From: Thermoanaerobaculia bacterium
GTDB lineage: Bacteria > Acidobacteriota > Thermoanaerobaculia > Multivoradales > UBA5704
NCBI GenBank assembly: GCA_045807625.1
Contig: JBJMHA010000063.1
Coordinates: 1,481 to 65,480 of the forward strand
DNA length: 64,000 nucleotides
Reading direction: 5' to 3'
Shown: piece after piece, positions 38,498-56,721 of the stretch
Position numbering within the stretch: the first letter of the stretch is position 1
Layout: each line of letters begins with the position of its first letter
Notes under the pieces: generated by a model
Databases searched by the model: none
Seen by the model: the letters and a program-made list of their open reading frames with translations, nothing else
What the model was told of the DNA's origin: nothing
Program-made: the position numbers and the translations under genes

Positions 38498-38558
38498 GGG
38501 AGAATGGTAGCAGGGATCGCGAATTCGCCGATTCCCGAGACCTCGTATCCTTCTCCCC

Positions 38559-40576: not shown

Positions 40577-40625
40577 GTTCGTCTCCTTTCTGGTTGTTAC
40601 TTGCAACTATCAGTCGAAAAAAAGC

Positions 40626-41135
40626 TCACGGGACGCGGCAGCAGCTTCCGCCGCCGGCCTCGACGCCCGCGGCAGCGGCGCGGGCGAGCCGGCGGAGCAC
40701 TCTGGTCATGGCCTGACGGACCTCGGGGGAGAAGTCGGCCAGGAGCTGGCGCTCCTCGGCCAGGATCGACTCGCGGATCTTCCCCTCCAGCTCGCGGCCC
40801 GCGGGGGTCGCCTCGAGGAGCGAGGCCCGGCGGTCCTTCGGATGCGGCAGGCGGGCCGCGTACCCCTTGCGCTCCAGGGCGTCCACGATCCGGCTGGCGG
40901 TGCTCTTGTCAAGGTAGAGGTAGGCCGCGAGGTCGTTCAGCGTCATCGAGCCCCGCCGCACCAGCCCTTCGAGGGCGTAGCACTGGGAGACCGAGACGTC
41001 GAAGCAGCAGATGCGGTCCCGGTCGCGGAACTGGTAGACGCGCAGCAGATCCTCCAGAGCGCCGTACAGCTCCTCCGTATCCCCCGCGAGGGAGGGATCG
41101 GAAGCGAGGACGGGGAGGGGGCTCGGCGAGGCCAT
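40626..41135 (-). CDS. MarR family transcriptional regulator
   Basis: Winged-helix core LVRRGSMTLNDLAAYLYLDKSTASRIVDALERKGYAARLPHPKDRRA. Upstream of arsM on the same strand. Confidence 0.8.
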   Translation of the reverse strand: MASPSPLPVLASDPSLAGDTEELYGALEDLLRVYQFRDRDRICCFDVSVSQCYALEGLVRRGSMTLNDLAAYLYLDKSTASRIVDALERKGYAARLPHPKDRRASLLEATPAGRELEGKIRESILAEERQLLADFSPEVRQAMTRVLRRLARAAAAGVEAGGGSCCRVP

Positions 41136-41226: not shown

Positions 41227-42546
41227 GTGAAATCCCCCCGTTCCAACGCCGCTCCGCCGCGCAAGGCCCCCGGCGACCTGCGGCTGGGGATCTTCTTCCT
41301 CTGGCTGCTGGTGCTGGTGCCGCCGCTGATCTGGGCGCCGGTGGCCAAGGAGTCGTTCCGGCAGCCGAAGCTCCTCGCCGCCGAGTGGCTGGCCCTGGCC
41401 TCGCTCGCCTGCCTCGCCTGGGGGCTCCGGCGGGTCGAGCGGGTGGGTCCCGCCGATCTCTGGCGGCTGCCCGCGGCGCGGATCGTCCTGCCCGTGCTGG
41501 GGGTGGCGACGCTGGGGCTCGCCTTCACCCGCCATCCGCTCCACGCGCGCGAGGCGCTGATCGACCTCTGGACCGGCGCCGCCGCGCTGGTGGGGTGGAG
41601 CGCGGCCCTGTCGTCCGAACGGCTCGCGCGCCTGCTGCGCGGGCTGCTCTGGCCCGCCTTCCTGCTGGCGCTGATCGGCATCGGCCAGTTCCACGGCGTC
41701 TGGCAGCCGCTGCGGCTCGCCCATCTCGAGGAGGGCTCGCGGCTCGCCATCACCTCGCTCGCCGGCAACCCCGGCGACCTCGCGGCGTTCCTCGTCCTCC
41801 CCTGCCTAGTGGCCCAGGACCTCCTGCGCCGGTGCGCCGGAGGAGGCTGGCGGAGCCCCGCGGGCCTGGGCGCGGTGCTGGCCCTGGCGGTCTCGGTCTA
41901 CGCCCTGTTGCTGACCCAGACCCTCGCCGCGGTGGCCGCGCTCCTGGCCGGCAGCCTGCTGCTCTGGGGGACCCGGATGCCGCGCCGCCGGGTCGCCCTC
42001 CTGCTCGCCGGCGGCGCCGTGGCCGCGGCCCTGCTGGCGGCCGGGGTGGCCCCCTTGCGCGAGCGGGTGGTGTTCAAGTGGCAGGAGATGGCCCGCGGGA
42101 ACTGGAACTCGGTGCTCACCGGCCGCTTCGACGGCTGGCGGGCGGCGGTCTGGATGTTCGAGCGCCATCCGCTCGCCGGCGTCGGCCAGGGGGCCTATCA
42201 GGCGGAGTTCGCCCCCGCCAAGCTGGCGCTGATCGACCGCGGCGCCATCTTCTTTCCCGGGCTGACCCAAGGGAGCGCCTTCGACAACGCCCACAACGAG
42301 GTCCTGGAGGCGGCGGCGGAGTGGGGGCTCCCCGGCCTGCTGGCCCTCGGCTGGGGGCTCTGGGTGCTCCTGCGGGCCCTGCGCCGGGGGGCCGGGACCC
42401 CCGAGGACCAGGCCCTGGCCTGGGCGGGCACCGCGGCGCTGGCGGTGCTCTCCCTGGTCGACTTCCCCTTCCGGGTGGCCCTGGTGGGCTTCCCCGCCCT
42501 CCTGTTCCTGAGCTGGGTATTGCGGCGGGCGGAGGAGGCGGCGTGA
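41227..42546 (+). CDS. O-antigen ligase family protein (Wzy_C domain), second paralog
   Basis: Polytopic membrane protein. Loop motif GAYQAEF...NAHNEVLEAAAEWGLPGL. Confidence 0.75.
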   Translation: MKSPRSNAAPPRKAPGDLRLGIFFLWLLVLVPPLIWAPVAKESFRQPKLLAAEWLALASLACLAWGLRRVERVGPADLWRLPAARIVLPVLGVATLGLAFTRHPLHAREALIDLWTGAAALVGWSAALSSERLARLLRGLLWPAFLLALIGIGQFHGVWQPLRLAHLEEGSRLAITSLAGNPGDLAAFLVLPCLVAQDLLRRCAGGGWRSPAGLGAVLALAVSVYALLLTQTLAAVAALLAGSLLLWGTRMPRRRVALLLAGGAVAAALLAAGVAPLRERVVFKWQEMARGNWNSVLTGRFDGWRAAVWMFERHPLAGVGQGAYQAEFAPAKLALIDRGAIFFPGLTQGSAFDNAHNEVLEAAAEWGLPGLLALGWGLWVLLRALRRGAGTPEDQALAWAGTAALAVLSLVDFPFRVALVGFPALLFLSWVLRRAEEAA

Positions 42547-42998
42547 GGGGGCGCACCCTGGCGGGGCTCCTCACCGTCCTGCTCGCCCTGGCGATGGCCG
42601 CCCAGACCGTCCGCTGGCGCGACCGTATGATGGCGAGCCGCCTGCTGGCCAACGCCGAGGCGCTCACCCTGGCAGTGGCCGCCGGCCAGATCCCCCCGGC
42701 GGCCCTGGCGGACAACCTGAAGGCGCTGCGCCGGGCGGCGGATCTCGATCCGGTGCAGGTGGGCATCCCCATCGCCCGCGGCAGCCAGTACCTCCTGCTG
42801 GGCCGCGCGGAGCCGGCCGAGCAGGTCTATCTGGAGGCGCTGCGGCTGGAGCCCAAGTCGGAGGTCTATCTCGACCTCGGACGGGCGCAGTGGCTGGCCG
42901 GCCGCAGGGAGGAGGCGCTGCGCAATTTCACCCTGGCCGTGCGGCTCGACCCCGGGCTGGTCCGCGTCCTGCCCAACGAGGCGGCCGGGGCGCCATGA
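42543..42998 (+). CDS. Small TPR-like hypothetical protein
   Basis: GTG start overlapping the ligase stop. Helical repeats (EQVYLEALRLEPKSEVYLDLGRAQWLAGRREEALRNF). Confidence 0.4.
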   Translation: MRGRTLAGLLTVLLALAMAAQTVRWRDRMMASRLLANAEALTLAVAAGQIPPAALADNLKALRRAADLDPVQVGIPIARGSQYLLLGRAEPAEQVYLEALRLEPKSEVYLDLGRAQWLAGRREEALRNFTLAVRLDPGLVRVLPNEAAGAP

Positions 42999-43390
42999 CC
43001 GCGCGGGAGCCCGATCCGCGGGTCTTCGCGGCCCTGCGCGACCTCGCCCACGAGGGGCCGGTCGAGGTGACGGTGCGCGGCGGCTGCATGGCCCCCGGAC
43101 TGGCCGACGGCGGCCGCGTGCGGGTGGCCGCCGCCCGCGTCTACCTGCCCGGCGACGTGGTGGTGTTCCGCGCCGCGGACGGCCGCCTGGTGGCCCACCG
43201 GCTCCTCGGCTACCGCCCATGGGGCCGCCGGCTCGCCCTGGTGACCCGCGGCGACTCCTGCCCCGTGCACGACGCTCCCGTCCTCCTGGCCGCCGTGCTC
43301 GGCCGGGTGGAGGCGGCAGCTCCCACCGCCCTGGCGCGGCTGCGCGCCTCCTGGCGCTTCCTGGGCCTCGCCCTGCGCCGGCGGCGATGA
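42995..43390 (+). CDS. S24/S26 peptidase-like beta-barrel protein, non-canonical (Cys in place of nucleophile Ser, no Lys)
   Basis: VRGGCMAPGLADGGRVRV...GDVVVF follows the LexA/signal-peptidase GDSMxP...GD(I/L)V pattern. ATGA-coupled to the previous gene and to the hprK-like gene. Confidence 0.6.
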   Translation: MTAREPDPRVFAALRDLAHEGPVEVTVRGGCMAPGLADGGRVRVAAARVYLPGDVVVFRAADGRLVAHRLLGYRPWGRRLALVTRGDSCPVHDAPVLLAAVLGRVEAAAPTALARLRASWRFLGLALRRRR

Positions 43391-44304
43391 GCTTCGGCGG
43401 CGGATTCCTCCGCCATCCCGACCTCTTCCCGGCCCGCCGGTCCGGCGAGCCCTGGGGGGACCGCGCCGTGGCCCTCGACGTGGCCGGCGGCCCCTATCTC
43501 CTCTCCGGCCTCGCCGCCCCGCAGGAGGAGGCGCTGCGCCGTCGCTTCGGCCCCCTGTGCGGCCCGGCGGAGGCGGAGGGGACGGTGACCGCCAGCGCGG
43601 TCTTCCGGGCCCCGGCGGCCGATTTCCTGCCGATCGACACCCGCGGCTGGGAGTACACCCTCGACCTCGACCCCGCTCCGGGCGCGCTGCGGGTCGCCGG
43701 CCTCCACCTGATGGCCCGCCTGGACTGGACGCCCGCCCTCGCCGGCGCCCTCTGGACCCCCCGGACGGAAGGAGAGGAGTGGGCGTCGGTCTGCGAGAAC
43801 TACCTCCGGATGCTGACCGCCTACCGCCTCCTGGAGCAGGGGGGCGCGCTGCTGCACAGCGCCGGGGTGAGCGACGGCGAGGCGGCCTGGCTCCTCCTCG
43901 GCCCCTCGGGCGCCGGCAAGACCACCGCCTCCCGGCTCTGCCTGGCGGGAGGGGCCACCGTCCTCTCGGACGACCTCAACGCCGTGCTCTTCGCCGGGGG
44001 GGAGGCCCGGCTCCGCAAGCTCCCCTTCACCGGCGACCTCGGCGAGCGCGCGGGGGGACCGGAGAGCGTCCCCCTGCGCGCCGTGCTGCGGCTGGCTCAG
44101 GGGGAGGTGGAGGGGCTGCGCCGGCTCTCCCCGGCGGCGGCTCTCGCCGCCCTGGTGGCCGCCTCTCCGTTCGTCAACCGCGACCCCTGGCGCCGGGAGG
44201 CGCTGCTCGCCGTGCTCGAACGGCTCGCCCGCGCCGTCCCCGCCTGGGAGGTGACGTTCTCCCGGGAGGGGGAGCTGTGGGGGATGCTCAAGGCGATTCG
44301 GTGA
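43387..44304 (+). CDS. HprK-related serine kinase, type A (HPr kinase C-terminal domain-like)
   Basis: P-loop LLLGPSGAGKTTASRL. Overall length and layout match the stand-alone HprK-like kinases seen in lasso/RiPP clusters. Confidence 0.75.
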   Translation: MSFGGGFLRHPDLFPARRSGEPWGDRAVALDVAGGPYLLSGLAAPQEEALRRRFGPLCGPAEAEGTVTASAVFRAPAADFLPIDTRGWEYTLDLDPAPGALRVAGLHLMARLDWTPALAGALWTPRTEGEEWASVCENYLRMLTAYRLLEQGGALLHSAGVSDGEAAWLLLGPSGAGKTTASRLCLAGGATVLSDDLNAVLFAGGEARLRKLPFTGDLGERAGGPESVPLRAVLRLAQGEVEGLRRLSPAAALAALVAASPFVNRDPWRREALLAVLERLARAVPAWEVTFSREGELWGMLKAIR

Positions 44305-44324
44305 GGCGGTCCCCCGCCCGATCC

Positions 44325-44369
44325 GACCGATTCGACCGATTCGACCGATTCGACGGGTCAGACCGATCA
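44325..44369. repeat. 9-bp tandem repeat (gaccgattc x3 plus two degenerate copies) in the hprK-A / pqqD intergenic region
   Basis: Copies at 44325, 44334 and 44343. Degenerate copies gacgggtca and gaccgatca follow. Confidence 0.6.
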
Positions 44370-44412
44370 CGCCTCAGAGGGCAAGAGGAGCTATACTCCG
44401 CTCCATACCCCC

Positions 44413-44712
44413 ATGAGCGACATCACTCCAGCGACCGTCCTCCGGAGGCGGTCCGACGTGCGCTACCGCCGGATCGAGGGGGAGGCGGTGGTGCTCCGCC
44501 AGGCCGCGGCCGAGGTGCTGGTGCTCAACGAGGTCGGCGCCTCGGTGCTCGACCTGGCGGACGGCGAGCGCTCGGTGGGGGAGTGGATCGACGCCCTGGC
44601 GGACGAGTACGAGGGGGATTCCGGGACCCTCGCCCATGACGTGCTCGCCTTCGCCGCCGAGCTCGCCGAGGCCGGTCTGCTGGAGCCGGTCGACCCGGAG
44701 CGGCAGCCGTGA
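44413..44712 (+). CDS. PqqD family protein (RiPP recognition element / peptide chaperone)
   Basis: 99 aa, MSDITPATVLRRRSDVRYRRIEGEAVVLRQ...VLNEVGASVLDL..GERSVGEWIDALADEY, the typical PqqD fold signature. Confidence 0.8.
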   Translation: MSDITPATVLRRRSDVRYRRIEGEAVVLRQAAAEVLVLNEVGASVLDLADGERSVGEWIDALADEYEGDSGTLAHDVLAFAAELAEAGLLEPVDPERQP

Positions 44713-45800
44713 GCCTGTCGCGGGTGGTCGCCGCCGCCTGGCGGGAGAACCTGCTGTTCTCGGTCCTCCTGGAGCTGACCTACCGCTGCAACCTCGACTG
44801 CTTCTTCTGCTACAACGACGTCGGATTGCGCGGCGAGCCGCTCTCCCGCGAGCAGTACTTCCAGCTCCTCGCGGACCTGCGGGAGATGGAGGTGATGAAC
44901 CTCACCCTCTCGGGGGGGGAGCCGCTGGCCCATCCGGACTTCGTGGCGCTGGGGGCGCGGGCGCGGGAGCTCGGCTTCGTGGTGCGGGTCAAGTCCAACG
45001 GCCACGCCCTGCGCGGCGAGCTCGCCCGCCGGGTGCGCGACGAGGTCGACCCCTTCCTGATCGAGGTCAGCCTCCACGGCGCCACCGCCCCCACCCACGA
45101 CCGCCAGACCCGCGTGCCGGGGAGCTTCGACCGCCTCGTCGCCAACCTGCGGGAGCTGCGGGAGCTGGGTCTGCGGGTGAAGCTCAACAGCACGCTCACC
45201 CGCTGGAACGAGGGGGAGATCGAGGGGATGTTCGCCCTCGCCGATGCGCTCGGCCTGCCGCTCCAGGTCGACCCCGAGGTGACGCCGCGCGACGACGGCG
45301 GCCGCGAGCCGCTCCAGGTGGCCCCCAGCCCCGAGGGGGTGCTCCGCCTCTTCCGCCTGCAGTTCGCGCGGGGGAGGGCGGCGGAGGAGGGAAAGCCGGA
45401 GGTCCAGGTGGCGCGCGGCGGCGGCGACGGCACCGTGCCCGTGCCGGTCCACAAGCACTGTGGCGCCGGCTCTTCCGGCATCGCGGTCGATCCGTTCGGC
45501 AACGTCTACCCCTGCGTGCAATGGCGCCGGCCGGTGGGGAGCCTCCACCATCAGAGGATCGGCGAGATCTGGCGGGGGTCGGCCGGCCTCGCCGAGGTGC
45601 GCGATCTCACGGTCCAGGTGAAGGAGCGGATCGGCGCCGAGGGGCCGGGGAGCCACCTGCTCAACTTCTGTCCCGGCTCGGCCGCCGCCCACGCCGGGGA
45701 TCCGCTGGCGCTCTACCCCGCGGCGGTGCAGCGCCGGGAGATCCTGGAGCAGGTGATGGGGGAAGAGGGGAAGAGGCCGCTGCTGCCGGTGGTGCGCTAG
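44709..45800 (+). CDS. Radical SAM / SPASM-domain peptide-modifying enzyme
   Basis: CNLDCFFC (CxxxCxxC) N-terminal cluster, and C-terminal Cys-rich SPASM region (HCGAGSSGIAVDPFGNVYPCVQW, NFCPGSAAAH). Translationally coupled to pqqD. Confidence 0.85.
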   Translation: MSLSRVVAAAWRENLLFSVLLELTYRCNLDCFFCYNDVGLRGEPLSREQYFQLLADLREMEVMNLTLSGGEPLAHPDFVALGARARELGFVVRVKSNGHALRGELARRVRDEVDPFLIEVSLHGATAPTHDRQTRVPGSFDRLVANLRELRELGLRVKLNSTLTRWNEGEIEGMFALADALGLPLQVDPEVTPRDDGGREPLQVAPSPEGVLRLFRLQFARGRAAEEGKPEVQVARGGGDGTVPVPVHKHCGAGSSGIAVDPFGNVYPCVQWRRPVGSLHHQRIGEIWRGSAGLAEVRDLTVQVKERIGAEGPGSHLLNFCPGSAAAHAGDPLALYPAAVQRREILEQVMGEEGKRPLLPVVR

Positions 45801-46304
45801 AGGTTACGAGGAGATCGGCCCCGAGGGGCAGAGGCCAGGGTTCCCCTTGGCGGGAGGGGAGGGGGCGCACACGGCCGCCACCGCCTCCAGCGGCTCGCGG
45901 GAGAGGACGCGGGGCCGCTCCCAGGGCCGCTTCGCGCGCGCGCCGGTCTCTCCGGGAGTCTGTGGCTTCGAGGGTCCGCTCCGCATTCCTCTTCTCAGGC
46001 GCTCCGCCGAGCTTGCGCGACGGGCGATTCTTCATTTCTACGTCGATCTGAGACTAAGCCCCTGTGAGGGATGTGTCAAGCTGGGCCCCAAAACCGGATA
46101 TCTCAATATTTAAGCCTATTTAGGACCAAAGGGATGCGGCACGGACGATTTTACCGTCCCGCTGCGGGAAGATGGGGCAAAAATTTTATAGCCATTCTTC
46201 AAAAAGCTGACGGTTCCGTCTGAGATTCCGGGCGTCCGAAGAGGGGACCACCGCTGCTTTGTTCTGGCCCACCTCTTGCAGTGGAGGTCTGGCGGCTTGG
46301 ATCA

Positions 46305-46320
46305 AGGCACACCCGCTGCG
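46305..46320 (+). promoter_or_regulatory. Candidate sigma-54 (-24/-12) promoter upstream of the secreted-protein / lasso-like operon
   Basis: aGGCACacccgcTGCg with GG and GC spaced 12 nt apart (46306-07, 46318-19). It lies 240 nt upstream of the 46560 start. Confidence 0.35.
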
Positions 46321-46559
46321 AGGCGGGGCCGCAAAGCCAGGGGTCTCCCGCCGAGATCGCCCGGTCGCCGAAAAGCCCTCAAAGGCACGTAGTCACGCGT
46401 AGCTCAGCAGGGGGCAGCTTTCATGGTACCGGGTCTCGATTCACCGCCGTTCCTCCCATCCAGCAGAGCTCCGTAGCGGGACCGCGCAGAGCGGCTCCGT
46501 AGTCTTTTTTTGTGCTGAGAAAAACCGATTGGATCCACCGACAAAAAGGAGAGCTGACA

Positions 46560-48011
46560 ATGAGTTTCCATCGGAAGATGACCTTGATGATCCTGGCGCT
46601 GCTGGCCTTCTCGGCGGCCGCCAACGCCACCCAACTCGGGCCGTTCATCGATCTCCAGGAGCAGGGGCTCTCGATGACCCACGACGGCCATGGGCTCTGG
46701 ACCTGGGGCGGCGGCCCGGTGAGCTTCAACGTCACCATCGGCGGCCCGGTGCGCTTCGCCCTGCTCTACTGGGCGGGCCGCGAGCGGCCGTGCACGCTCG
46801 ACGGCAGCGGCACCAACTGCCCGTTCACGCAGCCTTACAAGGACCAGGTGCTGAATTTCAACGGTGCTCCGATCACCGGCACCGTGATCGGCTCCGAGAC
46901 CCAGCCGACCAGCGGCGGCGGCCCGATCCTCAACGTGGGCTACTACGCCGACGTCACGGGCATCGTCTCCGCGGCGGGCACCGGGCCCCAGTCGTTCACG
47001 CTGACCGACGGTGACACGTCGAGCAATTTCTGGCGCTTCGACGGCGCCGCCCTGCTCGTTGCCTACAAGGACGGCACGAACCTCGACACCTACCGCATCC
47101 TCGTCCAGGACGGCCTGGACTTCGCCTACGGCGACGACCCCACCCCCGGTGACAACCGGGTGACCGCGCCGGTCACCTTCAACCATGGCGTCAACTTCTC
47201 GAACCGCACGGCCGACCTCCTTCTGTTCGCGGGAGACGGCGACGCCGACCGGCCGGACAACACCACGATCAGCAACAACCCGACGCTGTTCAACATCCTC
47301 AACTCGACGCAGGGACCGGAGTACAACACCGTCCTGACGCCGATCAGCATCCCCTCCGGCGCCGGCACCACCACGGTGCAGATGAACTCGGCGCCCGCCG
47401 GCCAGAACCCCGATTCGCTGCTCTGGGAGCTGGCCGCCCTGCGCGTCCAGCAGCTCGACATCGCCGGCGCGACCTGCCCGGCGCGGGTCATCGCCGGGCC
47501 GCCGACCCAGCTCCAGGTGACGGTCTCCGACGTCAACACCGGCATCCAGAGCATCGTGGTGACCCAGTCGGACAACGCCGACACGCCGGTGCCGCCGTTC
47601 ACCGTCGGCACCACCGACCCGGTGACCATCACCGCCACCAAGATCAACCAGTCGCAGCCCGCCCACGTCACCATCCAGGTGACCGACCTGGCCGGCAACA
47701 CCGTCACCTGCGACCCGGTGATCACGCTGATCCAGCGCAGCTCCAAGGAGGATCCGCAGCAGAACCGCCTCCGGGTGCCGGCTGAGGAGAGCAAGATCCA
47801 GATCATGAACGGCGAGCCGGGGCTCCGGACTTTCACCGCCCTGGTCAACGGCGTCACCTTCAAGGTGACCGGCCTGCGCAACAACGAGGTGCGTACCCTC
47901 GACGTCTCCTCGGCGATGCGCGCAGGCAACAAGAACATCGTCTACGTCAAGGGGCATGGCCCGCAGAACGCCTCGGCCACGGTGGTCCTCTCCGACGGCT
48001 CCGTCCAGTAG
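46560..48011 (+). CDS. Secreted Thr/Asn/Gly-rich protein of unknown function
   Basis: RBS aaaggagag. Signal peptide MSFHRKMTLMILALLAFSAAANA. No recognisable catalytic motifs. Confidence 0.65.
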   Translation: MSFHRKMTLMILALLAFSAAANATQLGPFIDLQEQGLSMTHDGHGLWTWGGGPVSFNVTIGGPVRFALLYWAGRERPCTLDGSGTNCPFTQPYKDQVLNFNGAPITGTVIGSETQPTSGGGPILNVGYYADVTGIVSAAGTGPQSFTLTDGDTSSNFWRFDGAALLVAYKDGTNLDTYRILVQDGLDFAYGDDPTPGDNRVTAPVTFNHGVNFSNRTADLLLFAGDGDADRPDNTTISNNPTLFNILNSTQGPEYNTVLTPISIPSGAGTTTVQMNSAPAGQNPDSLLWELAALRVQQLDIAGATCPARVIAGPPTQLQVTVSDVNTGIQSIVVTQSDNADTPVPPFTVGTTDPVTITATKINQSQPAHVTIQVTDLAGNTVTCDPVITLIQRSSKEDPQQNRLRVPAEESKIQIMNGEPGLRTFTALVNGVTFKVTGLRNNEVRTLDVSSAMRAGNKNIVYVKGHGPQNASATVVLSDGSVQ

Positions 48012-48102
48012 GCGGAAGACGACGGCACGAATCTTGAATTGAAGCCCGGCATACTCCCGGAGGATGTATGCCGGGCGCCTTTCCAACAAGGAGGATCGTT
48101 CC

Positions 48103-48180
48103 ATGGTCAAGAAGGCGTACAGAAGGCCGTCCCTACGGCGTCTGGGCCTGCTGCGGCGGGTCACCCGGTTCAGCTTTTAG
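48103..48180 (+). CDS. 25-aa basic peptide with lasso-peptide leader motif (leader-only / decayed precursor)
   Basis: MVKKAYRRPSLRRLGLLRRVTRFSF* with a strong RBS (aaggagga 8 nt upstream). Y6, P9, L11, G15 and T21 fit the YxxPxLxxxGxxxxxT leader consensus with Thr at -2, leaving only FSF as core. Lies immediately upstream of the PqqD/B2 genes. Confidence 0.5.
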   Translation: MVKKAYRRPSLRRLGLLRRVTRFSF

Positions 48181-48272
48181 CCACGGCTCCGGACTGTCTT
48201 TCGCCGGTGAGGTCTACCGGACCTCTCCGGCTTCTCTTTGCCTGGCGGGCTTTCGCGGCCCCGGAGGGATCG

Positions 48273-48554
48273 ATGATCGACGCGCAGAGCCGCCCCCGCC
48301 ACCGGGAGCGGGTGCTGACCCAGACGGCGGCCGGGACGCTGGTCCTGCTCGACCTCGACGGCGGGCAGTACTACTCCCTCGACGAGGTGAGCGCCCGCGT
48401 CTGGGAGCTGTGCGACGGCGAGCACGGCGTGGAGGGGATCGTGGAGGCGATCAGCGCCGAGTACGACGCCCCGGCGGAGACGATCTACGAGGACGTCCTG
48501 GCGTTCCTCGAGGAGATGCTGGATGAGAAGCTCCTGGTCGTCGAGGGCGCGTGA
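48273..48554 (+). CDS. PqqD family protein (lasso B1-like RRE), copy 2
   Basis: MIDAQSRPRHRERVLTQTAAGTLVLLDLDGGQYYSLDEVSARVWELCDGEHGVEGIVEAISAEYDAP. RBS ggaggg. Confidence 0.75.
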   Translation: MIDAQSRPRHRERVLTQTAAGTLVLLDLDGGQYYSLDEVSARVWELCDGEHGVEGIVEAISAEYDAPAETIYEDVLAFLEEMLDEKLLVVEGA

Positions 48555-48960
48555 GCCCCTCCCGGAGACCCTCCTCCCCGTCCGCGTGATTCTTTTCGCG
48601 GCGCTGGTGCCGCTGCTCCTGCGGCTCTGCAGGCTCCCCCGCCTGCGGGCCTGGGTCGAGCCCCGGCGGCGGTCCCCCGCGCCGCCCGGCCCTGAGGAGA
48701 TCGAGGCGCTGACCCAGCGGATCGACGAGCTCCTGATCGCCGGCCGGCCGGCGGTCCGCACCGGCTGTATGGTCCGCGGCCTCACCCTCTACCGCTTCCT
48801 CCGCCGGGCGGGCGCGGACGTCTCCCTCCGCTTCGGCGTCGGCACCATCCGCGGCAACTTCGCCGCCCACTGCTGGATCGTCTACCAGGGCGAGCCCCTG
48901 GCCGAGACGCACGACCCCCGCCCCCTGTTCACCGAGACCTGGAGGATCGAGCCCGCGTGA
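48523..48960 (+). CDS. Transglutaminase-like cysteine protease, lasso B2-type (PF13471-like)
   Basis: C...H...D triad context CMVRGLTLYRFLRRAGADVSLRFGV...GNFAAHCWIVYQGEPL resembles the McjB C-terminal domain. Overlaps the PqqD gene end (alternative GTG start at 48586). Confidence 0.7.
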   Translation: MRSSWSSRAREPLPETLLPVRVILFAALVPLLLRLCRLPRLRAWVEPRRRSPAPPGPEEIEALTQRIDELLIAGRPAVRTGCMVRGLTLYRFLRRAGADVSLRFGVGTIRGNFAAHCWIVYQGEPLAETHDPRPLFTETWRIEPA

Positions 48961-49925
48961 GCGATCGCGCCTACCTTCTGCACGGAGTACGGCTCGGCGT
49001 GCTGGCCACGGGCGAGGGGGAGAAGGCCGCCGCGGGGGTCCACGCGCGGCTGGCCGGCCTGCCGCTCGACGGCGGCCCCCCCTGGGACGTCACCTTCGAG
49101 ATCCAGGCCGCCGGGAGCCACGCCTTCGAGCGCCCGGAGGCGGCGCGGCCGGTCTACGATCCGCCGCTCGGCGAGGTGGTCTACGACGACGCGGCCGACC
49201 GGCTCTTCATCGGCTACGGCCCCCGCCTGCGGGTGCTCTGCGAGCCCGGCCGCGGCCGAGCCCGGGCCTCGGCGGCGGGGATGGCGGAGGAGGACCTGTG
49301 GTCTCTCTCCCACCCCCTGTTCACCCTGCCGCTGGTGGAGCTGCTGAAGCGCCGCGGCCTCTACGGCCTCCACGCCGGGGGCGTCTGCCGGGGCGGCCGC
49401 GCCCTGCTCCTGCCCGGCACCAGCGGCTCGGGGAAGTCGACCCTCACCCTGGCGCTGGCGCGGGCGGGCTTCGATCTGCTGGGCGACGATACCCTCTTCC
49501 TCGCCCGCCGGCCCGGAGAGGCGCCGCGGGTCCTCGCCTTCCCGGATGAATTCGACCTCACCGGCCAGACCGTCTCGTTCTTTCCCGAGCTCGCCCCCCT
49601 GCTCGGCGGGCCGGCCCCGGCGGGGTGGCGCAAGCGGCAGGTGCGGGCCGAGCGGGCCTACGGGGCGCCGGTGGCCTGGGAGTGCGCTCCGGCGGTGCTG
49701 GTCTTCCCCCGGGTGGCCGGCGTCCCAGAGAGCGAGCTGACCCCCCTGAGCGCCGGGGAGGCGCTGCTGGAGCTCGTCCCCAACGTGCTGCTGACCGAGC
49801 CCCGCTCCTCCCAGGCCCACCTGGACGCCCTGGCCGAGCTGGTGGCGGCGAGCGAATGCTTCCGCCTGGCCACCGGGACCGACCTGGAAGCGGCGGCGCG
49901 GCTGGTGGGAGGGCTGCTGCCGTGA
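48957..49925 (+). CDS. HprK-related serine kinase, type B
   Basis: P-loop LLLPGTSGSGKSTLTLAL. GTG start overlapping the B2 stop. Paralogous to the 43387 gene. Confidence 0.75.
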   Translation: MSDRAYLLHGVRLGVLATGEGEKAAAGVHARLAGLPLDGGPPWDVTFEIQAAGSHAFERPEAARPVYDPPLGEVVYDDAADRLFIGYGPRLRVLCEPGRGRARASAAGMAEEDLWSLSHPLFTLPLVELLKRRGLYGLHAGGVCRGGRALLLPGTSGSGKSTLTLALARAGFDLLGDDTLFLARRPGEAPRVLAFPDEFDLTGQTVSFFPELAPLLGGPAPAGWRKRQVRAERAYGAPVAWECAPAVLVFPRVAGVPESELTPLSAGEALLELVPNVLLTEPRSSQAHLDALAELVAASECFRLATGTDLEAAARLVGGLLP

Positions 49926-50968
49926 CCCGCGAGGACCGCCTCCTCTGCCTCTGCGCCCGGCAGGAATTCCTCACCGGACACCGCCGGGCGGTGGAGGAGC
50001 TCTGCCGCGGCGCCGCCGTGCGCTGGAGCCGCCTGGCCGCGGCGGCGGAGCGGCACGGGGTGCTCCCCATCGTGGGGGCCAACCTCCGGACGTGCGACGC
50101 CGGCCTGCCGGAGGATCTCGCCGTCCGCTGCGAGCTCGCCGTCCTCGAGAACGCGGCCGTCCGCGAGCGGGACGCCGACCGCCTGGCCGACGGGCTCGCC
50201 CGTTTGCGCGAGGTCGAGCTGGAGGCGATGCTGCTCAAGGGGACGGCTCTCGCGCTCTCCGTCTACACCGAGCCCTGGGTGGTGACCTCGCAGGACATCG
50301 ACCTCGTCCTCCGCCCCACCGGGCCGGGGTGGGCGAAGGGGAAGGGGAGGGAGAAGGAGGTCCGCCGCGCCCTCTATACGAACGGCGTCGAGTGCGACCT
50401 CGAGACCCACCACGACGTCACCATGAACGGCGTGCTGCCGGTCGACTTCGCGCGCATCTGGCGCGAGGCGCGGCCGGTGGGCTTCCGCGGCGTGCCCGCC
50501 TGGAGGATGTCCCCCGAGGACCTGCTGATCTCCCTCTGCGTCAACTGCTGCCGCAAGCGCTTCCGCCTCAAGGGGGTGTTCGACGTCGCCGAGACGCTGC
50601 GCCGCGGGGAGCCCCTCGACCAGGGGCGGCTGGGTGTCCTGGCCCGCGAGGGGCGGTGCGAGGGGATCGTCTACGCGGCCCTGGTGGTGGCTCGGGGAGC
50701 GCTCGACGCCGGGCTGCCGGCGGGGTTCCTGGAGCCTCTGGGGGTCTCGCCGGTCCGGGCGGCCCTGCTGCGGTCCCTGGCCGCGGCCTTCCTGGGCGCC
50801 GCCCCCTTCACCGGCCGCTCCGGCCGTCCGCTGGCCCTGGCCCTCGCCTACGCGAGCCTCCGGCCGGCCGAGGCCTGGAGGTCCGTCCGCTACAGCCTGA
50901 CCCATCCGGACAAGCACAAGGGGGAGGACCCGCAGGCTCCGGCGCAGGCGGCGGTCGCGGGTTCGTAG
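49922..50968 (+). CDS. Nucleotidyltransferase family protein (PF14907-like), copy 2
   Basis: MLLKGTALALSVYTEPWVVTSQDIDLVL motif. GTG start overlapping the kinase stop. Confidence 0.7.
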   Translation: MTREDRLLCLCARQEFLTGHRRAVEELCRGAAVRWSRLAAAAERHGVLPIVGANLRTCDAGLPEDLAVRCELAVLENAAVRERDADRLADGLARLREVELEAMLLKGTALALSVYTEPWVVTSQDIDLVLRPTGPGWAKGKGREKEVRRALYTNGVECDLETHHDVTMNGVLPVDFARIWREARPVGFRGVPAWRMSPEDLLISLCVNCCRKRFRLKGVFDVAETLRRGEPLDQGRLGVLAREGRCEGIVYAALVVARGALDAGLPAGFLEPLGVSPVRAALLRSLAAAFLGAAPFTGRSGRPLALALAYASLRPAEAWRSVRYSLTHPDKHKGEDPQAPAQAAVAGS

Positions 50969-51004: not shown

Positions 51005-52495
51005 ATGAGAGCCATGGCGCGCCACGACGCCCTCATCGCCGAGAAGCGGCGGATCCTCCAGCTCGAGACCCTCTACGACCTGGCGATCGCCCTCCACGCG
51101 CAGGGTCCGGAGCAGGAGCTGGTCGACGAGCTGCTGCAAAGGGTCTGCGCCGTGCTCGATCCGGCGGCGGCCGTGGCGGTCACCCGCGACGCCTATGGCG
51201 GGGCCCGCGGGGTCGCCTCGGTCGGCTGGCTGGACGACCTGCCCACGGGGGACGCCCTGCTGGCGGCCCCGATCTGGCGGGAGCTGCTGACCGAGGGGCA
51301 CACGCTTGTCCGCGCGGGCGGCGAGCTGGCCGGCCGCCCCTACGAGCAGCTCCTCGCCGCCCCCCTCTCCTACCGCGGCGTCTTCCTGGGCTACGTCGCC
51401 GTGCTCGACAAGGAGGTGCGGGGTGACTCGGACCACTCCTTCACCCCCGACGACCGGCGCTTCCTCGACTCGGTGACCGCCCTCGCCGGCGCCGCCCTCG
51501 ACGCCGCCCGCCAAGTCGAGCGCCTGGAGACCCAGCGCGAACGGCTGGAGGAGGAGAACAAGGCCCTCAAGGGGCGGCTCGCCCAGGAGGTCGCGGGGCG
51601 GCGGATCGTGGCCCTGGCGCCGCCGATGCGCCGCGTGCTGGACGTCATCGAGCGGGTGGCGCCGCGCGGCGTCAGCGTCCTGGTGCGGGGGGAGAGCGGC
51701 ACGGGCAAGGAGCTGGTGGCGAAGCTCCTCCACCACCTCTCCGGCCGCGGGGGGGCGCTGATCGCCGTCAACTGCGCGGCCCTCCCCGAGTCGCTGCTGG
51801 AGAGCGAGCTCTTCGGCATCGAGGGCGGAGTCGCCACCGGCGTCCAGGCGCGGCCGGGAAAGTTCGAGCTGGCCGACCGCGGCACCCTCTTCCTCGACGA
51901 GATCGGCGACATGCAGACCTCCCTCCAGGTGCGGCTCCTGCGGGCCCTCCAGGAGCGCGAGGTCACCCGCGTCGGCGGCCGGCGGCCGATCCCCGTGGAC
52001 GTGCGGCTGGTCGCCGCGACCCACCAGGACCTGGAGGCGCTGATCGGCGACGGCCGCTTCCGCGAGGACCTCTACTACCGCCTCAAGGGGGTGGAGATCG
52101 AGCTCCCCCCGCTGCGCGAGCGCAAGCAGGACGTCCCCCACCTGGTGCGCGCCTTCGTCGAGGAGTTCTGCCGCCGGGAGGGGATCCCGGTCCCGGCGTT
52201 CCGCTCGGAGGCGCTCGCCCTGCTGCTCGCCTACGACTTCCCGGGCAACGTCCGCGAGCTGCAGAACGTGGTCGAGGGGGCCGTCTCCCTGGCCGACGGC
52301 GAGATCGGCGCCGAGCTGATCCGCTCCCTGCTCGCCGCGCCCCCCGCCCAGCAGACCGCCCCCGAGGCGCTCGACCTCGTCACCCTGGAGCGCCGCCATA
52401 TCGCCCGCGTCCTCAAGCTGACCAACGGCAACAAGAGCGAGGCGGCGAAGATTCTCGGGCTCGACCGCAAGACGTTGCAGCGGAAGGGATACTGA
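51005..52495 (+). CDS. Sigma-54-dependent transcriptional activator (GAF - AAA+ sigma-54 interaction - Fis-type HTH)
   Basis: Walker [15 protein letters not shown] motif, [16 protein letters not shown], and a C-terminal [18 protein letters not shown]. Confidence 0.85.
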
Positions 52496-53337: not shown

Positions 53338-53772
53338 ATGCCTGAAGGCGTTTTGAGAGCCGTCGAGCTGGCGCTGCCGATGGTCCCCGAGATGGAGATC
53401 GAGGCGAGCAGGACCGCGACCGCGATCGCCGAGTGGATCGGGATGAGCCCCGACCGCATCGACGAGGTCAGGATGGCGGTGGTGGAGGCCTGCATCAACG
53501 CCTTGGAGCACAGCCACGCCTCCGACCGCGAGGTCTACGTGACGTTCCAGGTCCTGGGGGAAGGGGGGGACCCGGAGAAGCTGCGCATCATGGTCCGCGA
53601 CACCGGGATCGGTTTCTCCCCGAATGTCGTCGAGGAGCCCACGATCGAGGGTAAGATCAAGGCGGTGCGCAAGCGCGGCTGGGGTCTCAAGATCATCCGC
53701 GGGCTCATGGACGAGGTGGAGATCCTCTCCGGCGCCGACGGCACGACTGTCGTAATGAGTAAGATGCGATGA
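53338..53772 (+). CDS. Anti-sigma factor / serine-protein kinase (RsbW/SpoIIAB-like, HATPase_c)
   Basis: N-box VEACINALEHSH, G-boxes DTGIGF and GWGLKIIRGLMDEV. Confidence 0.8.
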   Translation: MPEGVLRAVELALPMVPEMEIEASRTATAIAEWIGMSPDRIDEVRMAVVEACINALEHSHASDREVYVTFQVLGEGGDPEKLRIMVRDTGIGFSPNVVEEPTIEGKIKAVRKRGWGLKIIRGLMDEVEILSGADGTTVVMSKMR

Positions 53773-53785
53773 AAGCGGGGGCGAG

Positions 53786-54136
53786 ATGACCGAGAGCCTC
53801 AACATCACCGTGGATCGACGCGAAGGGCTGGCGGTGATCTATACGGAGGGGTATATCAACAACCAGGGGGGCGAGGAGATCGCCAAATCGGCCTACAAGC
53901 TCCTCGACGAAGGCTACAAGACCCTCCTCCTCAACCTGGCGGGGACGAAGATCGTCAACTCGATCGGCATCTCCATCCTCATCGAGATCATCGAGAAGAT
54001 GATCGAGATCGAGGGCAAGCTGGGATTCTGCTGCTTGACTCCGACCATCGAAAAGACCTTCCATATCATGGGCCTCGCGCAGTACGCTCCCATCTATCCG
54101 GATGAGGCGACCGCGGTGGCGCAGATGCGGTCCTGA
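53786..54136 (+). CDS. Anti-sigma factor antagonist (STAS domain, RsbV/SpoIIAA-like)
   Basis: 116 aa. LLLNLAGTKIVNSIGISILIEI carries the conserved phospho-Ser region. Confidence 0.85.
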   Translation: MTESLNITVDRREGLAVIYTEGYINNQGGEEIAKSAYKLLDEGYKTLLLNLAGTKIVNSIGISILIEIIEKMIEIEGKLGFCCLTPTIEKTFHIMGLAQYAPIYPDEATAVAQMRS

Positions 54137-54156
54137 CTTTTCAGTAGGAGACATCC

Positions 54157-55740
54157 ATGGAGGGTACGCCGCGCGCCGGCGGGGCGGCGCAGGCCTGGGA
54201 CGAGCTGCTGACCCTCTCCCGCGACGAGGCGAGCGAGCGCCAGATGCTGGAGCGCCTGCTCGACCTCTGGCGGCGGGAGCACGGCGCCGAGGCGGCCGGG
54301 CTCTATCTGGAGCGCGGCGGGCTGCTGCACCAGGAGAGCGCGGCCGGAGGGCACCTCCCCGAGGTGATCGAGGGGGCTCCGGCCGACGGCCTCGGCAGCC
54401 TCGCCTTCCCGGGCGGCCGGCTCCTGGTCTCCCCTTCCACCGCCGCGGCGGCGGCCACGGCGGCCGACCCCCTGACGCTGCTCCTCGCCTCGGCGCTCAA
54501 GAGCTGCCGGCTGAAGGCCGAGCTCAAGGAGCAGCAGTTCCAGGTCAACTACCGGGTGGTGGAGCTGGAGGCCCTCTACGACGTGGGGCTGGCCGTGGCC
54601 TCCACCCTCGACCTCGACCGCCTCTCCGAGGAGATCCTGCTGCGCGCCGTCTCCCTGCTCGACGCCCGGCGGGGCGCCCTCTACATCCTGGAGGACGGCC
54701 GCTACCGCCTGGACCGCACGTTCGGCGGCGAGGCGGCCCCCTGGCTCTCGGGCGAGGACCCGGGGCTGCGCCGGTTCCTCACCGACGGCGGCGAGGCGCC
54801 GCCCCACCTGCTGCCCGGCGCGCGGTACCTGCTGGGGGTGCCGATCGAGGTCGAGAGCGGCCCCCGCGGGCTGATCGCGGTGGGGGACAAGGAGAGCCGC
54901 CGGGGCGTCGGCCCCTTCCTCACCTCGGACCGCCGCACCCTCGCGCTGTTCGCCAACCAGGCGGCGCTGGCCCTGGAGAACGCCCGTCTCCACCTCCAGG
55001 CGCTCGAGAAGGAGCGGCTGGAGCGCGAGATGCACCTCGCGGCCGAGATCCAGCGCCGCATCCTCCCCAAGGGCTCTCCCGCGGTGTCCGGCTACGAGCT
55101 CCTCGGCTGGTACCGCCCGGCGCGCCAGGTGGGAGGCGACTACTACGACCTCTTCCGCCGCGACGACGGCCGGGTGGGCCTGGTGGTGGGCGACGTCTCG
55201 GGCAAGGGGATGCCGGCGGCCCTCCTGGTGTCGACGCTCCACTCGGGCCTCCGCCTGCTGCTCGACCAGATCGGCTTCGGCCCGGCGATGCTGGAGCGGC
55301 TGAACCGCCACATCGGGGACTACAGCGCCGCCAACAAGTTCATCACCATGCTGCTGGCCGAGCTCACCCCCGAAACCGGGGTCCTCCATTACATGAACGC
55401 CGGGCACAACCCCGGGATCCTGCTGCGGCTCGACGGCAGCGCCGAGGAGCTGGCGCCCGGCGGCGTCCCGCTCGGGTTGATCTCCGGCGCGCGGTACCAG
55501 TCCCGGATGGTGACGCTGGCGCCGGGAGACCTCGTCTGCCTCTACAGCGACGGCATCACCGAGGCCGCCTCGCTGGCCGACGAGGAGTTCGGGATGGAGC
55601 GTCTGATCGACCTCCTCCGCGCCGAGCGCGACCGCCCCCTGGAGGAAGTGATCGAGGCCATCACCCACGTGGTCGGCGAATTCTCCCAGGGTCTCCCCCA
55701 GGGGGACGACCAGACGCTGGTGCTGCTGCGGCGGGGGTAG
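54157..55740 (+). CDS. PP2C-family serine phosphatase with GAF domain (RsbU/SpoIIE-like)
   Basis: Central GAF region, then C-terminal PP2C motifs GGDYYD, GDVSGKG and YSDGITEA. Confidence 0.85.
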   Translation: MEGTPRAGGAAQAWDELLTLSRDEASERQMLERLLDLWRREHGAEAAGLYLERGGLLHQESAAGGHLPEVIEGAPADGLGSLAFPGGRLLVSPSTAAAAATAADPLTLLLASALKSCRLKAELKEQQFQVNYRVVELEALYDVGLAVASTLDLDRLSEEILLRAVSLLDARRGALYILEDGRYRLDRTFGGEAAPWLSGEDPGLRRFLTDGGEAPPHLLPGARYLLGVPIEVESGPRGLIAVGDKESRRGVGPFLTSDRRTLALFANQAALALENARLHLQALEKERLEREMHLAAEIQRRILPKGSPAVSGYELLGWYRPARQVGGDYYDLFRRDDGRVGLVVGDVSGKGMPAALLVSTLHSGLRLLLDQIGFGPAMLERLNRHIGDYSAANKFITMLLAELTPETGVLHYMNAGHNPGILLRLDGSAEELAPGGVPLGLISGARYQSRMVTLAPGDLVCLYSDGITEAASLADEEFGMERLIDLLRAERDRPLEEVIEAITHVVGEFSQGLPQGDDQTLVLLRRG

Positions 55741-55749
55741 AATCCCCCC

Positions 55750-56721
55750 ATGAACCGCAAAGCCCTGCTCGCCCTGCTCCTGCTGCTCGTCCCTGTCCTC
55801 CTCCTCGCCCAGAACAAACCCGACGCGCCGCGCCCGAAATGGGCGATCGCCATCCATGGCGGCGCCGGCACGATCCCCAAGACCATGCCCGAGGCGAAGA
55901 AGCAGGAGTACCTCCGCTCGCTTGGGGCAGCCCTCAAGATCGGCCAGGACGTGCTCCAGAAGGGGGGCACCAGCCTGGACGCGGTCGAGAAGGTGATCCG
56001 CTTCCTGGAGGACGATCCGCTGTTCAACGCCGGCAAGGGGGCGGTCTACACCCACGAGGGGACGCACGAGCTCGACGCCGCCATCATGGACGGCCGCGAT
56101 CTCTCCTGCGGCTCGGTGGCCGCGCTGAAGACGGTCAAGAACCCCATCTCCCTGGCCCGGCTGGTGAAGGAGAAGTCGCCGCACGTCTTCCTGGTGGGGG
56201 AGGGGGCCGAGGCGTTCGCCTCGCAGATGAAGGTGGAGCGGGTCGTCAATTCTTGGTTCGACACCCCCGAGCGCTACCAGCAGCTCCAGGAGGCGCTCAA
56301 GGAGGAGCCCAAGGAGCATGGGACGGTCGGCTGCGTGGCCCTCGACACCCACGGCAACCTGGCGGCGGGGACCTCCACCGGCGGCCTCACCAACAAGCGG
56401 TTCGGCCGCCTGGGGGACGTGCCGGTGATCGGCGCCGGCACCTACGCCAACAACCAGACCTGCGCCCTCTCGGCCACCGGCATCGGCGAGGAGTTCATCA
56501 AGCACACCGTGTCGCACGACATCTCGGCCCTCATGGAGTACTCCGGCCTCTCGCTCCAGAAGGCAGCGGACCGGGTGATCCACCAGAAGCTGAAGCCCGG
56601 CGACGGCGGCGTCATCGGCGTCGCCCACGACGGCTCGATCGCGCTGGTCTTCAACTCCGAGGGGATGTATCGCGGGGCGGCCGATTCGAACGGCCGCTTC
56701 GAGGTCAAGATCTGGGAGTAG
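55750..56721 (+). CDS. iaaA: Isoaspartyl peptidase / L-asparaginase (Ntn-hydrolase, plant-type), exported
   Basis: Signal peptide MNRKALLALLLLLVPVLLLAQ. Motifs AIHGGAG, the autoprocessing site GTVGCVALD and GGLTNKRFGR. Confidence 0.85.
   Translation: MNRKALLALLLLLVPVLLLAQNKPDAPRPKWAIAIHGGAGTIPKTMPEAKKQEYLRSLGAALKIGQDVLQKGGTSLDAVEKVIRFLEDDPLFNAGKGAVYTHEGTHELDAAIMDGRDLSCGSVAALKTVKNPISLARLVKEKSPHVFLVGEGAEAFASQMKVERVVNSWFDTPERYQQLQEALKEEPKEHGTVGCVALDTHGNLAAGTSTGGLTNKRFGRLGDVPVIGAGTYANNQTCALSATGIGEEFIKHTVSHDISALMEYSGLSLQKAADRVIHQKLKPGDGGVIGVAHDGSIALVFNSEGMYRGAADSNGRFEVKIWE

Follow-up and report, generated by a model that had tools for sequence, protein, structure and literature searches.

A 64,000-nucleotide stretch from a metagenome-assembled genome (MAG) of a Thermoanaerobaculia bacterium (assembly GCA_045807625.1, contig JBJMHA010000063.1, positions 1,481 to 65,480; called the window below, about 72% G+C) carries a short peptide gene, here named pepB, followed by four maturation genes (48103-50968, + strand). 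Proteins encoded in the window match MAGs of Thermoanaerobaculia, in the Acidobacteriota. The set has the leader and the enzymes of a lasso peptide cluster, no lasso cyclase was detected with it, and the core of its peptide is reduced to three residues. On balance, we lean towards regarding it as a linear, cyclase-free descendant of a phosphorylated (paeninodin/Bsf-type) lasso pathway, with the pepB peptide as the probable substrate. The observation is solid, and the mechanism proposed for it rests on homology. A lasso-type toolkit without a cyclase, and with a core cut to three residues, is conserved in Acidobacteriota and several other phyla. Studies of lasso leaders, B1/B2 proteins, HprK-like kinases and PF14907 enzymes have until now dealt with the making or tailoring of threaded lasso peptides and, since 2026, also with the linear polyphosphorylated peptides (LPPs) of Bacillota.

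All named genes from pepB to the nucleotidyltransferase gene are intact and lie on the + strand. pepB (48103-48180, +) encodes a precursor of 25 aa, MVKKAYRRPSLRRLGLLRRVTRFSF, made of a lasso-type leader and a three-residue core. It is followed by the genes of B1 (48273-48554, +), a discrete PqqD-type recognition element (RRE) for peptides that are ribosomally synthesised and post-translationally modified (RiPPs); of B2 (48523-48960, +), a transglutaminase-like Cys protease and predicted leader peptidase; of K (48957-49925, +), a P-loop kinase of the HprK/PEPCK fold; and of N (49922-50968, +), a PF14907 "uncharacterised nucleotidyltransferase". A preliminary description of this DNA had presented the whole of 48103-50968 as tightly coupled. 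This is true of the enzyme genes, which overlap by 32 nt (B1/B2), 4 nt (B2/K) and 4 nt (K/N), but not of pepB, which no gene overlaps and which is separated from B1 by 92 nt, with a hairpin and its T-rich tail in the gap. A GGAGG-like site is found at the start of each of the four enzyme genes (GGAGGG precedes the B1 ATG). Upstream of pepB lies the gene of a secreted, DUF3344-like all-beta protein of 483 aa (46560-48011, +), which is co-conserved with the peptide gene.

The pepB precursor and its three-residue core

Counted from the Arg|Phe junction, pepB has Tyr at -17, Pro at -14, Leu at -12, Gly at -8 and Thr at -2. In lasso leaders, YxxPxL always occupies positions -17 to -12 and Thr position -2 (PMC10368454). 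The spacing in pepB equals this published rule exactly, and the rule holds in 53 DNA versions of the gene. The predicted core is Phe-Ser-Phe, immediately followed by the stop codon, in line with the earlier statement that the peptide has almost no core. The features of a cyclisable core (Asp or Glu at positions 7-9, and a length that permits threading) are lacking in pepB, and likewise in 51 of the 53 versions.

The 53 versions come from a set of 57 related loci, in which one genome was scanned per species and genes were mapped by tblastn; a pepB gene was detected in 49 of them. Seven residues are invariant, namely Tyr, Pro, Gly, Thr(-2), Leu-9, Leu-6 and Arg-5, and each is encoded by four to five different codons (two for Tyr). 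The fraction of non-consensus nucleotides at codon positions 1, 2 and 3 was 0.116, 0.077 and 0.285, respectively. The core is conserved as well. Its first residue is Phe in 48 of 53 versions and Leu in the others; the second is Ser in 52, with Thr as the single exception, so that the hydroxyl is kept throughout; the third is Phe in 52. Core codons vary synonymously, and the stop codon follows the core directly in 51 versions. The pattern indicates that pepB is under purifying selection. A chance small open reading frame (ORF) was ruled out by the conserved Shine-Dalgarno sequence (AAGGAGG, 8 nt ahead of the pepB ATG), by the 53 DNA versions and by the variation being highest at third positions. 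Three variants of the core were recorded: FSFENFSF, in which the tripeptide is repeated (Acidimicrobiales MAG, L060 9074-9169), FSVPQ (Chthonomonadaceae MAG, L046 9021-9107) and FTF (Dehalococcoidia MAG, L044 9032-9112).

Genes of the pepB type are almost never annotated. When the 42-aa extended ORF of pepB was used as a query against a collection of 5.8 billion proteins, 17 entries were retrieved, all of them nameless or called "hypothetical protein" and all ending in FSF. The NCBIfam scan of the 25-mer gave no match. Membership of a known, named peptide family was rejected, the only similarity being a weak 13-bit match of the extended ORF to NF033528 (lasso_cyano) that covers just the leader part of the model (positions 1-20 of 35).

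The free aromatic-x-Phe end of pepB (48172-48180) is like the C-terminal signature of outer-membrane proteins and like PDZ-domain ligands. If the product were exported, this end may hint at a periplasmic receptor.

Maturation enzymes, recurrence of the set and searches for a cyclase

Domain searches upheld the assignments made earlier for all four enzymes, including the split B protein, the HprK-type kinase and the PF14907 protein. B1 matched PF05402 with 79.5 bits and lasso_PqqD_Bac with 51 bits, under the cutoff of 80 for the latter. The solved structures closest to it all belong to lasso B1 proteins: TbiB1 (5v1u, 3.9e-9), 9x90_B, annotated as "lasso peptide biosynthesis PqqD family chaperone", as well as TfuB1 (6jx3). 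B2 scored 64.9 bits against NF033537 (lasso_biosyn_B2, cutoff 33) and 59.8 bits against PF13471. Its Cys (in GC[LM]) and His (in GHCW) are invariant across 18 sequences from several phyla, and the Asp (in DP) is conserved, with Asn in two of the 18.

K matched TIGR04352 best among the NCBIfam models (E=1.6e-16), followed by TIGR04355 (E=2.2e-8) and TIGR00679 (E=6e-4). With 60.2 bits against a TIGR04352 cutoff of 200, it stands outside the curated HprK-related kinase A family and is only related to it. The AlphaFold2 model of K (predicted local distance difference test score 85.6) had PEPCK and HprK/P as its best Foldseek matches, and residues His139, Lys160, Asp177 and Asp178, which correspond to the His-Lys-Asp-Asp motif of lasso kinases, are invariant. 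N matched PF14907 with 99.3 bits, and all of the 16 sequences compared share its D-x-D pair (SQDIDL). We take this pair to correspond to D134/D136 of PsmN, a protein outside that alignment; both residues are required in the pseudomycoidin enzyme (PMC6993621, PMC9266682). Domains and catalytic residues are intact in all four enzymes and, with the leader motif, B1, B2, the HprK-type kinase and the PF14907 protein all present, the description of the set as lasso-derived stands.

Relatives of K are numerous: 673 were found in a word-indexed search, and an exhaustive search gave 271 clusters at 50% identity (E<=1e-30). Most of the 57 loci show the order DUF3344-like gene, peptide gene, PqqD, B2, kinase and, usually, PF14907. 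The full order was found in MAGs labelled Thermoanaerobaculia, Holophagales, Dehalococcoidia, Gemmatimonadaceae and Actinomycetes. Terriglobales/Acidiferrum have the same genes, but with the DUF3344 gene downstream on the opposite strand. Two loci (L046, Chthonomonadaceae; L060, Acidimicrobiales) have the peptide and the enzymes without a DUF3344 match, and the enzymes occur without a peptide gene in Verrucomicrobiota, in Entotheonella and in three others. Co-occurrence of the gene order in other genomes had been proposed as a check on the first description; order and peptide recur in 49 of the 57 independent genome loci, which is far beyond chance and no accident of one genome.

No lasso cyclase was found. 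PF00733 had no match among about 18 coding-like ORFs of at least about 450 aa that were scanned in the window, and the PP-loop motif of AsnB, SGGxDS, was absent from ORFs of at least 200 aa in the same 64 kb. The absence of an AsnB-like cyclase, read from the sequence at the outset and proposed for a wider scan, is borne out by these searches of the window. It extends to the related loci: in 56 of the 57, no AsnB-like cyclase with SGGxDS was detected in the surrounding 10 kb or so. Across the 57 modules, a single AsnB-like ORF was seen at a distance of less than 10 kb (678 aa, SGGLDS; L061 2059-4095). It lies about 4-5 kb away from the module, is not adjacent to it and is followed by an unrelated AMP-binding-like gene. 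It is probably unrelated to the module.

Predicted pathway, competing explanations and known relatives

In the pathway that we infer, from its chemical steps to its biological role, the PqqD-type B1 would bind the leader via YxxPxL. The HprK-fold kinase, aided by B1, would phosphorylate the core Ser (core position 2), perhaps repeatedly, and the PF14907 enzyme would add a further group, hexose or nucleotide, to the phosphate. The B2 Cys protease would cut after Thr(-2)-Arg(-1), leaving a modified Phe-Ser-Phe tripeptide, and no macrolactam would be formed. The product would most likely serve the cell surface or the biofilm matrix together with the DUF3344 protein, because the locus is embedded in an exopolysaccharide (EPS) cluster, with genes for Wzz with tyrosine kinase, CpsB, ATP sulfurylase/APS kinase, a flippase, a PMT_2 glycosyltransferase, an epimerase and Wzy_C around the module.

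Precedents exist for these steps. PadeK, ThcoK and PsmK phosphorylate leader-bearing precursors, often repeatedly, and PsmN is needed for the addition of hexose to phospho-Ser (PMC6993621, PMC9266682). BsfK phosphorylates core Ser3, and BsfB1 speeds the reaction and assists B2 (PMC10368454). LppK polyphosphorylates core Ser3 of the linear, cyclase-free LPPs, from which LppS, a signal-peptidase-like enzyme, removes the leader (PMC13381572). Phosphorylation by BsfK and LppK is RRE-dependent (PMC10368454, PMC13381572). Since the core is near-invariant, with Ser replaced only by Thr, and since the related kinases phosphorylate a Ser near the leader-core junction, pepB itself is the likeliest substrate. 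The strong Shine-Dalgarno sequence and the terminator-like hairpin after the gene agree with the way in which RiPP precursor genes commonly stand before the genes of their enzymes.

Several points weigh against this reading. Phosphorylation, cleavage and the final product are predictions from homology, K is far under the NCBIfam trusted cutoff (60 against 200 bits), and B1 is under the lasso-specific cutoffs. Five enzyme-bearing loci have no detectable peptide gene in the DNA covered, and three further loci are truncated. One locus has Thr in the core, whereas an S3T variant of an LPP was not phosphorylated (PMC13381572). The stretch RRLGLLR, outside the leader motif, is more conserved than in ordinary leaders, so that the entire peptide may be under some additional constraint. 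B2 substrates do not usually have Phe at core position +1, and a core of three residues is very short for cleavage by this protease. As regards export, no ABC-transporter domain was detected among the Pfam-scanned ORFs of the window, nor among the conserved neighbours in related loci, so that the conserved set lacks an exporter for a tripeptide made in the cytoplasm.

The absence of an exporter and the unusual conservation of the whole leader would both suit a leader that acts in trans, the peptide loading B1 and thereby activating B2, K and N on the DUF3344 protein before export, or on a polysaccharide intermediate. For its "leader-only" peptide, the preliminary description proposed either an arrangement of this kind or enzymes repurposed for another substrate, for instance the secreted protein encoded upstream or a glycan. 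Linkage of the DUF3344 gene to the module is indeed seen in 47 of 58 loci, from several phyla. Four loci (L007, L012, L040 and L059, the last with three copies) have extra copies of both this gene and the peptide gene, B1, B2 and K remaining single. The joint duplication suggests that the two products are needed together, and the EPS setting, with Wzy_C, Wzz/tyrosine kinase, CpsB and flippase, also suits action in trans. However, an activator needs no conserved F-[S/T]-F tail with a hydroxyl and an immediate stop; the DUF3344 protein has a signal peptide, but neither a YxxP leader nor, in the structural model, an obvious target segment; and the characterised relatives of the kinase all act on the leader-bearing peptide itself. 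We hold action in trans to be unlikely, and with F, S and F conserved in 48, 52 and 52 of 53 versions a "leader-only" peptide is not favoured. What is retained from that proposal is a role for the upstream protein, plausible from its co-conservation and co-duplication, with the peptide itself as the likeliest substrate.

It is also improbable, in our estimate, that the whole cationic 24-aa peptide, or the released leader, phosphorylated or not, is itself a regulatory or membrane-active product, with B2 serving for its turnover or activation. The extreme conservation of R-11, R-10, L-9, L-7, L-6 and R-5, the net charge of about +8, the probable co-transcription with a structural protein and the terminator-like hairpin ahead of the enzyme genes would suit such a role. 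Against it, the conserved positions coincide exactly with those known for recognition by RRE and B2, and the invariance of the B2 Cys and His across phyla, with a conserved Asp (Asn in 2 of 18), speaks for the importance of cleavage at Thr(-2)-Arg(-1).

An ordinary lasso cluster was rejected on the lack of PF00733 and SGGxDS matches in 64 kb and on the shortness of the core. A cluster with its cyclase and full-length precursor elsewhere, or a pseudogenised remnant, is very improbable. In its favour, the window covers only 64 kb, on a MAG contig of some 76 kb, with the rest of the genome unseen, and one locus (L061) has the AsnB-like ORF at about 4-5 kb. Against it, that ORF is non-adjacent and followed by the AMP-binding-like gene, the same cyclase-free set and core recur in dozens of loci with intact ORFs, catalytic residues and purifying selection, and a three-residue core without Asp or Glu is uncyclisable by any lasso cyclase.

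Returning to a linear, phosphorylated product of pepB, we put forward a wider proposal, tentatively. The locus could represent an unrecognised RiPP class, widespread in uncultured soil lineages, whose product, a (poly)phosphorylated and possibly glycosylated Phe-Ser-Phe, would be the smallest derived from the lasso pathway. It might act as a partner (ligand, cofactor or anchor) of the DUF3344 surface protein during matrix or exopolysaccharide production, under the control of a cyclic di-GMP (c-di-GMP) riboswitch in Thermoanaerobaculia and Holophagales only.

With the phosphorylated lasso clusters of paeninodin, pseudomycoidin and Bsf (A, B1, B2, C, K, N, D) the module shares the leader, YxxPxL at -17 to -12 and Thr at -2, the discrete B1, a B2 with Cys-His-Asp, a kinase with His-Lys-Asp-Asp and a PF14907 enzyme with D-x-D. 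Unlike them, it has no detected macrolactam synthetase C and no ABC exporter, its core counts three residues without an Asp/Glu acceptor instead of about 15-25, it is linked to DUF3344, and its K and B1 are under the family-specific NCBIfam cutoffs. The hosts differ as well, being MAGs of Acidobacteriota, Gemmatimonadaceae, Dehalococcoidia, Chthonomonadaceae and Actinomycetes/Acidimicrobiales, with enzyme-only sets in Verrucomicrobiota and Entotheonella.

The closest precedent is that of the LPPs (Popov et al., Nat Commun 2026, PMC13381572), whose description lowers the novelty of the cyclase-free aspect. Both systems are cyclase-free, combine a discrete RRE with an HprK-like kinase and an NTP-transferase, and carry a Ser near the start of the core (the phospho-acceptor in LPPs, and the predicted one here). 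Both are embedded in capsule or EPS loci, and both adjoin a second RRE-dependent module with a similar leader motif, here a set upstream of pepB called module A. They differ in the leader peptidase, which is LppS, similar to signal peptidase I (SpI) of the archaeal type, in LPPs and B2 in the pepB module, the SpI-like gene being in module A. LPP precursors have 35-200 aa, the motif YxxPxVLxHQxIxFETxxS and a 45-aa core, whereas pepB has 24-25 aa and shares only YxxPx[L]; LPP clusters have an MsbA-like exporter, and none was found here. LPPs are reported as restricted to Bacillota, where capsule loci house their clusters and a lasso cluster of the paeninodin type is often a neighbour (PMC13381572). 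The present locus mirrors this pairing of LPP and lasso-type sets, with a lasso-type partner that is without a cyclase and nearly all of its core. The module shares working parts of both systems, and it lacks two features that define lasso systems (cyclase and cyclisable core) and three that define LPPs (SpI-like peptidase, long precursor motif and exporter).

HPr-rel-A (TIGR04352) and SynChlorMet (ScmC, ScmD, ScmE/F) also pair an HprK-related kinase with a PqqD protein, but the curated cutoffs separate them from the present genes (60 against 200 bits for K, and 23 against 125 bits for the ScmC match in module A). Products made from only two or three residues are known among leader- or RRE-guided RiPPs, namely pyrroloquinoline quinone, mycofactocin and the biarylitides. 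They have in common with the module the idea of a leader that recruits enzymes through an RRE and of a product drawn from a very short C-terminal piece; they are cross-linked by radical SAM enzymes or P450s, as against a kinase, a nucleotidyltransferase and a Cys protease here. Within an incomplete coverage of the literature, no description of a B2-dependent system with a three-residue core, or of its link to DUF3344, was found.

In the RRE-Finder survey, about half of the discrete lasso-type RREs were without peptidase and cyclase, and were treated as false positives or unknown classes. The module helps explain part of this cyclase-less pool. pepB also offers a very small and easily synthesised substrate for the chemistry of B1-dependent kinases, B2 and PF14907 enzymes, and the tie of a RiPP-like pathway to a predicted c-di-GMP riboswitch and a DUF3344 surface protein in Thermoanaerobaculia and Holophagales makes a role in the biofilm matrix directly testable.

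Regulatory elements and neighbouring genes

The region first singled out began at 46305, ahead of the DUF3344 gene. Its first part, 46305-46559, is non-coding and contains a c-di-GMP-I (GEMM-I) riboswitch aptamer (RF01051; 46296-46372, +), which lies in the 5' untranslated region (UTR) of the DUF3344-peptide unit. The match covers the full model (1-87 of 87) with 53.2 bits, against a gathering threshold of 35 (E=1.4e-7), and is the only Rfam match in the 64 kb; the same element scores 56 bits with the GGC variant, RF03167. A riboswitch above the gathering threshold was found at the same place in 7 of 7 related loci of the Thermoanaerobaculia/Holophagales type (L001, L003, L009, L013, L028, L041 and L057), and was not found in seven loci of other lineages (L044-L048, L059 and L060). 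Because of its absence from the latter, the predicted riboswitch control is lineage-specific and outside the core system. About 50 nt ahead of the DUF3344 start, a hairpin trailed by a U7 tract (46476-46511, +; read directly and in a local fold of 46460-46520) could be the terminator, or expression platform, of the riboswitch. The fold energy of the whole 5' UTR did not differ from that of shuffled sequences (z=0.21). The link of the unit to c-di-GMP and to an EPS locus would point to a matrix or cell-surface role.

Just upstream of the aptamer, a predicted sigma-54-type promoter, TGGCCCACCTCTTGCA, was recognised by motif match (46265-46280, +; -24 TGGC, -12 TTGCA). The strict consensus at this place is not above chance within the window. 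The pattern TGG[CT]-N7-TTGCA, loosened to a variable spacer and counted without a shuffled or random-window control, was present in 37 of 39 related loci, at 270-360 nt upstream of the DUF3344 start codon. A GAF-domain sigma-54 activator is encoded at 51005-52495 and is conserved in the closest relatives only. A sigma-54 promoter directly ahead of pepB (48023-48038) was rejected as not above chance.

Two further hairpins flank pepB. A perfect, GC-rich hairpin of 11 bp, read and folded at 48044-48076 (+), stands between the DUF3344 stop codon and the ribosome-binding site of pepB; its 3' arm and the GCCTTTC that follows recur ahead of the Shine-Dalgarno sequence in many loci. Directly after pepB, a terminator- or attenuator-like GC-rich hairpin with a T-rich tail, TTCTCTTT, occupies 48203-48239 (+). 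A stem of at least 10 pairs with a T-rich tail was present after pepB in 26 of 55 distinct loci, as compared with 4 of 275 random windows from the same loci, and the stems, though variable in sequence among loci, remain paired. The DUF3344 and pepB genes probably share a transcript, and the arrangement is what one would see if this unit were strongly expressed and read-through towards the enzyme genes were attenuated.

The gene set given in the preliminary description was confirmed; the sigma-54-type promoter and the riboswitch had been overlooked, as had the LPP-like module A, which lies at 42543-45986, directly upstream of the region then singled out. Module A begins with the genes of a TPR protein (42543-42998), of a signal-peptidase-I-like protein of the archaeal type (42995-43390; TIGR02228 38 bits, cutoff 51.85; SipW NF046067) and of a ScmC/HprK-like protein (43387-44304; TIGR04249 ScmC), which keeps the pattern H...GxxGxGKT...DD and whose relatives carry PF27840. 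A second PqqD gene (44413-44712; PF05402), a radical SAM/SPASM gene (44709-45800; PF04055 and PF13186) and a convergent gene for a 60-aa peptide with two Cys, pepA (45804-45986, -), complete it. pepA reads ...RP[WY]ERPR[IV]LSREPLEAVAAVC..C..GPISS and was found in 27 distinct versions. By its gene content, module A resembles the LPP set of Bacillota (PMC13381572), supplemented by a radical SAM enzyme. In one related locus (L001), the genes of module A, Wzy_C and another PF14907 gene form one operon with 4-nt overlaps. In the window, a spacer of 108 nt separates the ScmC-like gene from the PqqD gene and contains a 9-nt unit repeated in tandem three to four times (CGACCGATT; about 44320-44360, +); other loci show a 4-nt overlap of the two genes.

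A second PF14907 nucleotidyltransferase gene (48.6 bits; 38511-39740, +) lies upstream of the Wzy_C gene, from which it is separated by a methyltransferase gene (39737-40606, -) and a MarR-like gene (40626-41135, -). On the other side of the pepB module, the stretches 53338-56721 and 59854-61369 hold a partner-switching set, with a HATPase_c_2 anti-sigma-like kinase and a GAF-SpoIIE phosphatase, and its neighbours. A small adjacent ORF (53786-54136), counted with the set, was judged STAS-like by eye only, and likewise the ORF next to the set, at 55750-56721, as an asparaginase or isoaspartyl peptidase. Two tandem paralogues of protein-L-isoaspartate O-methyltransferase lie further along.

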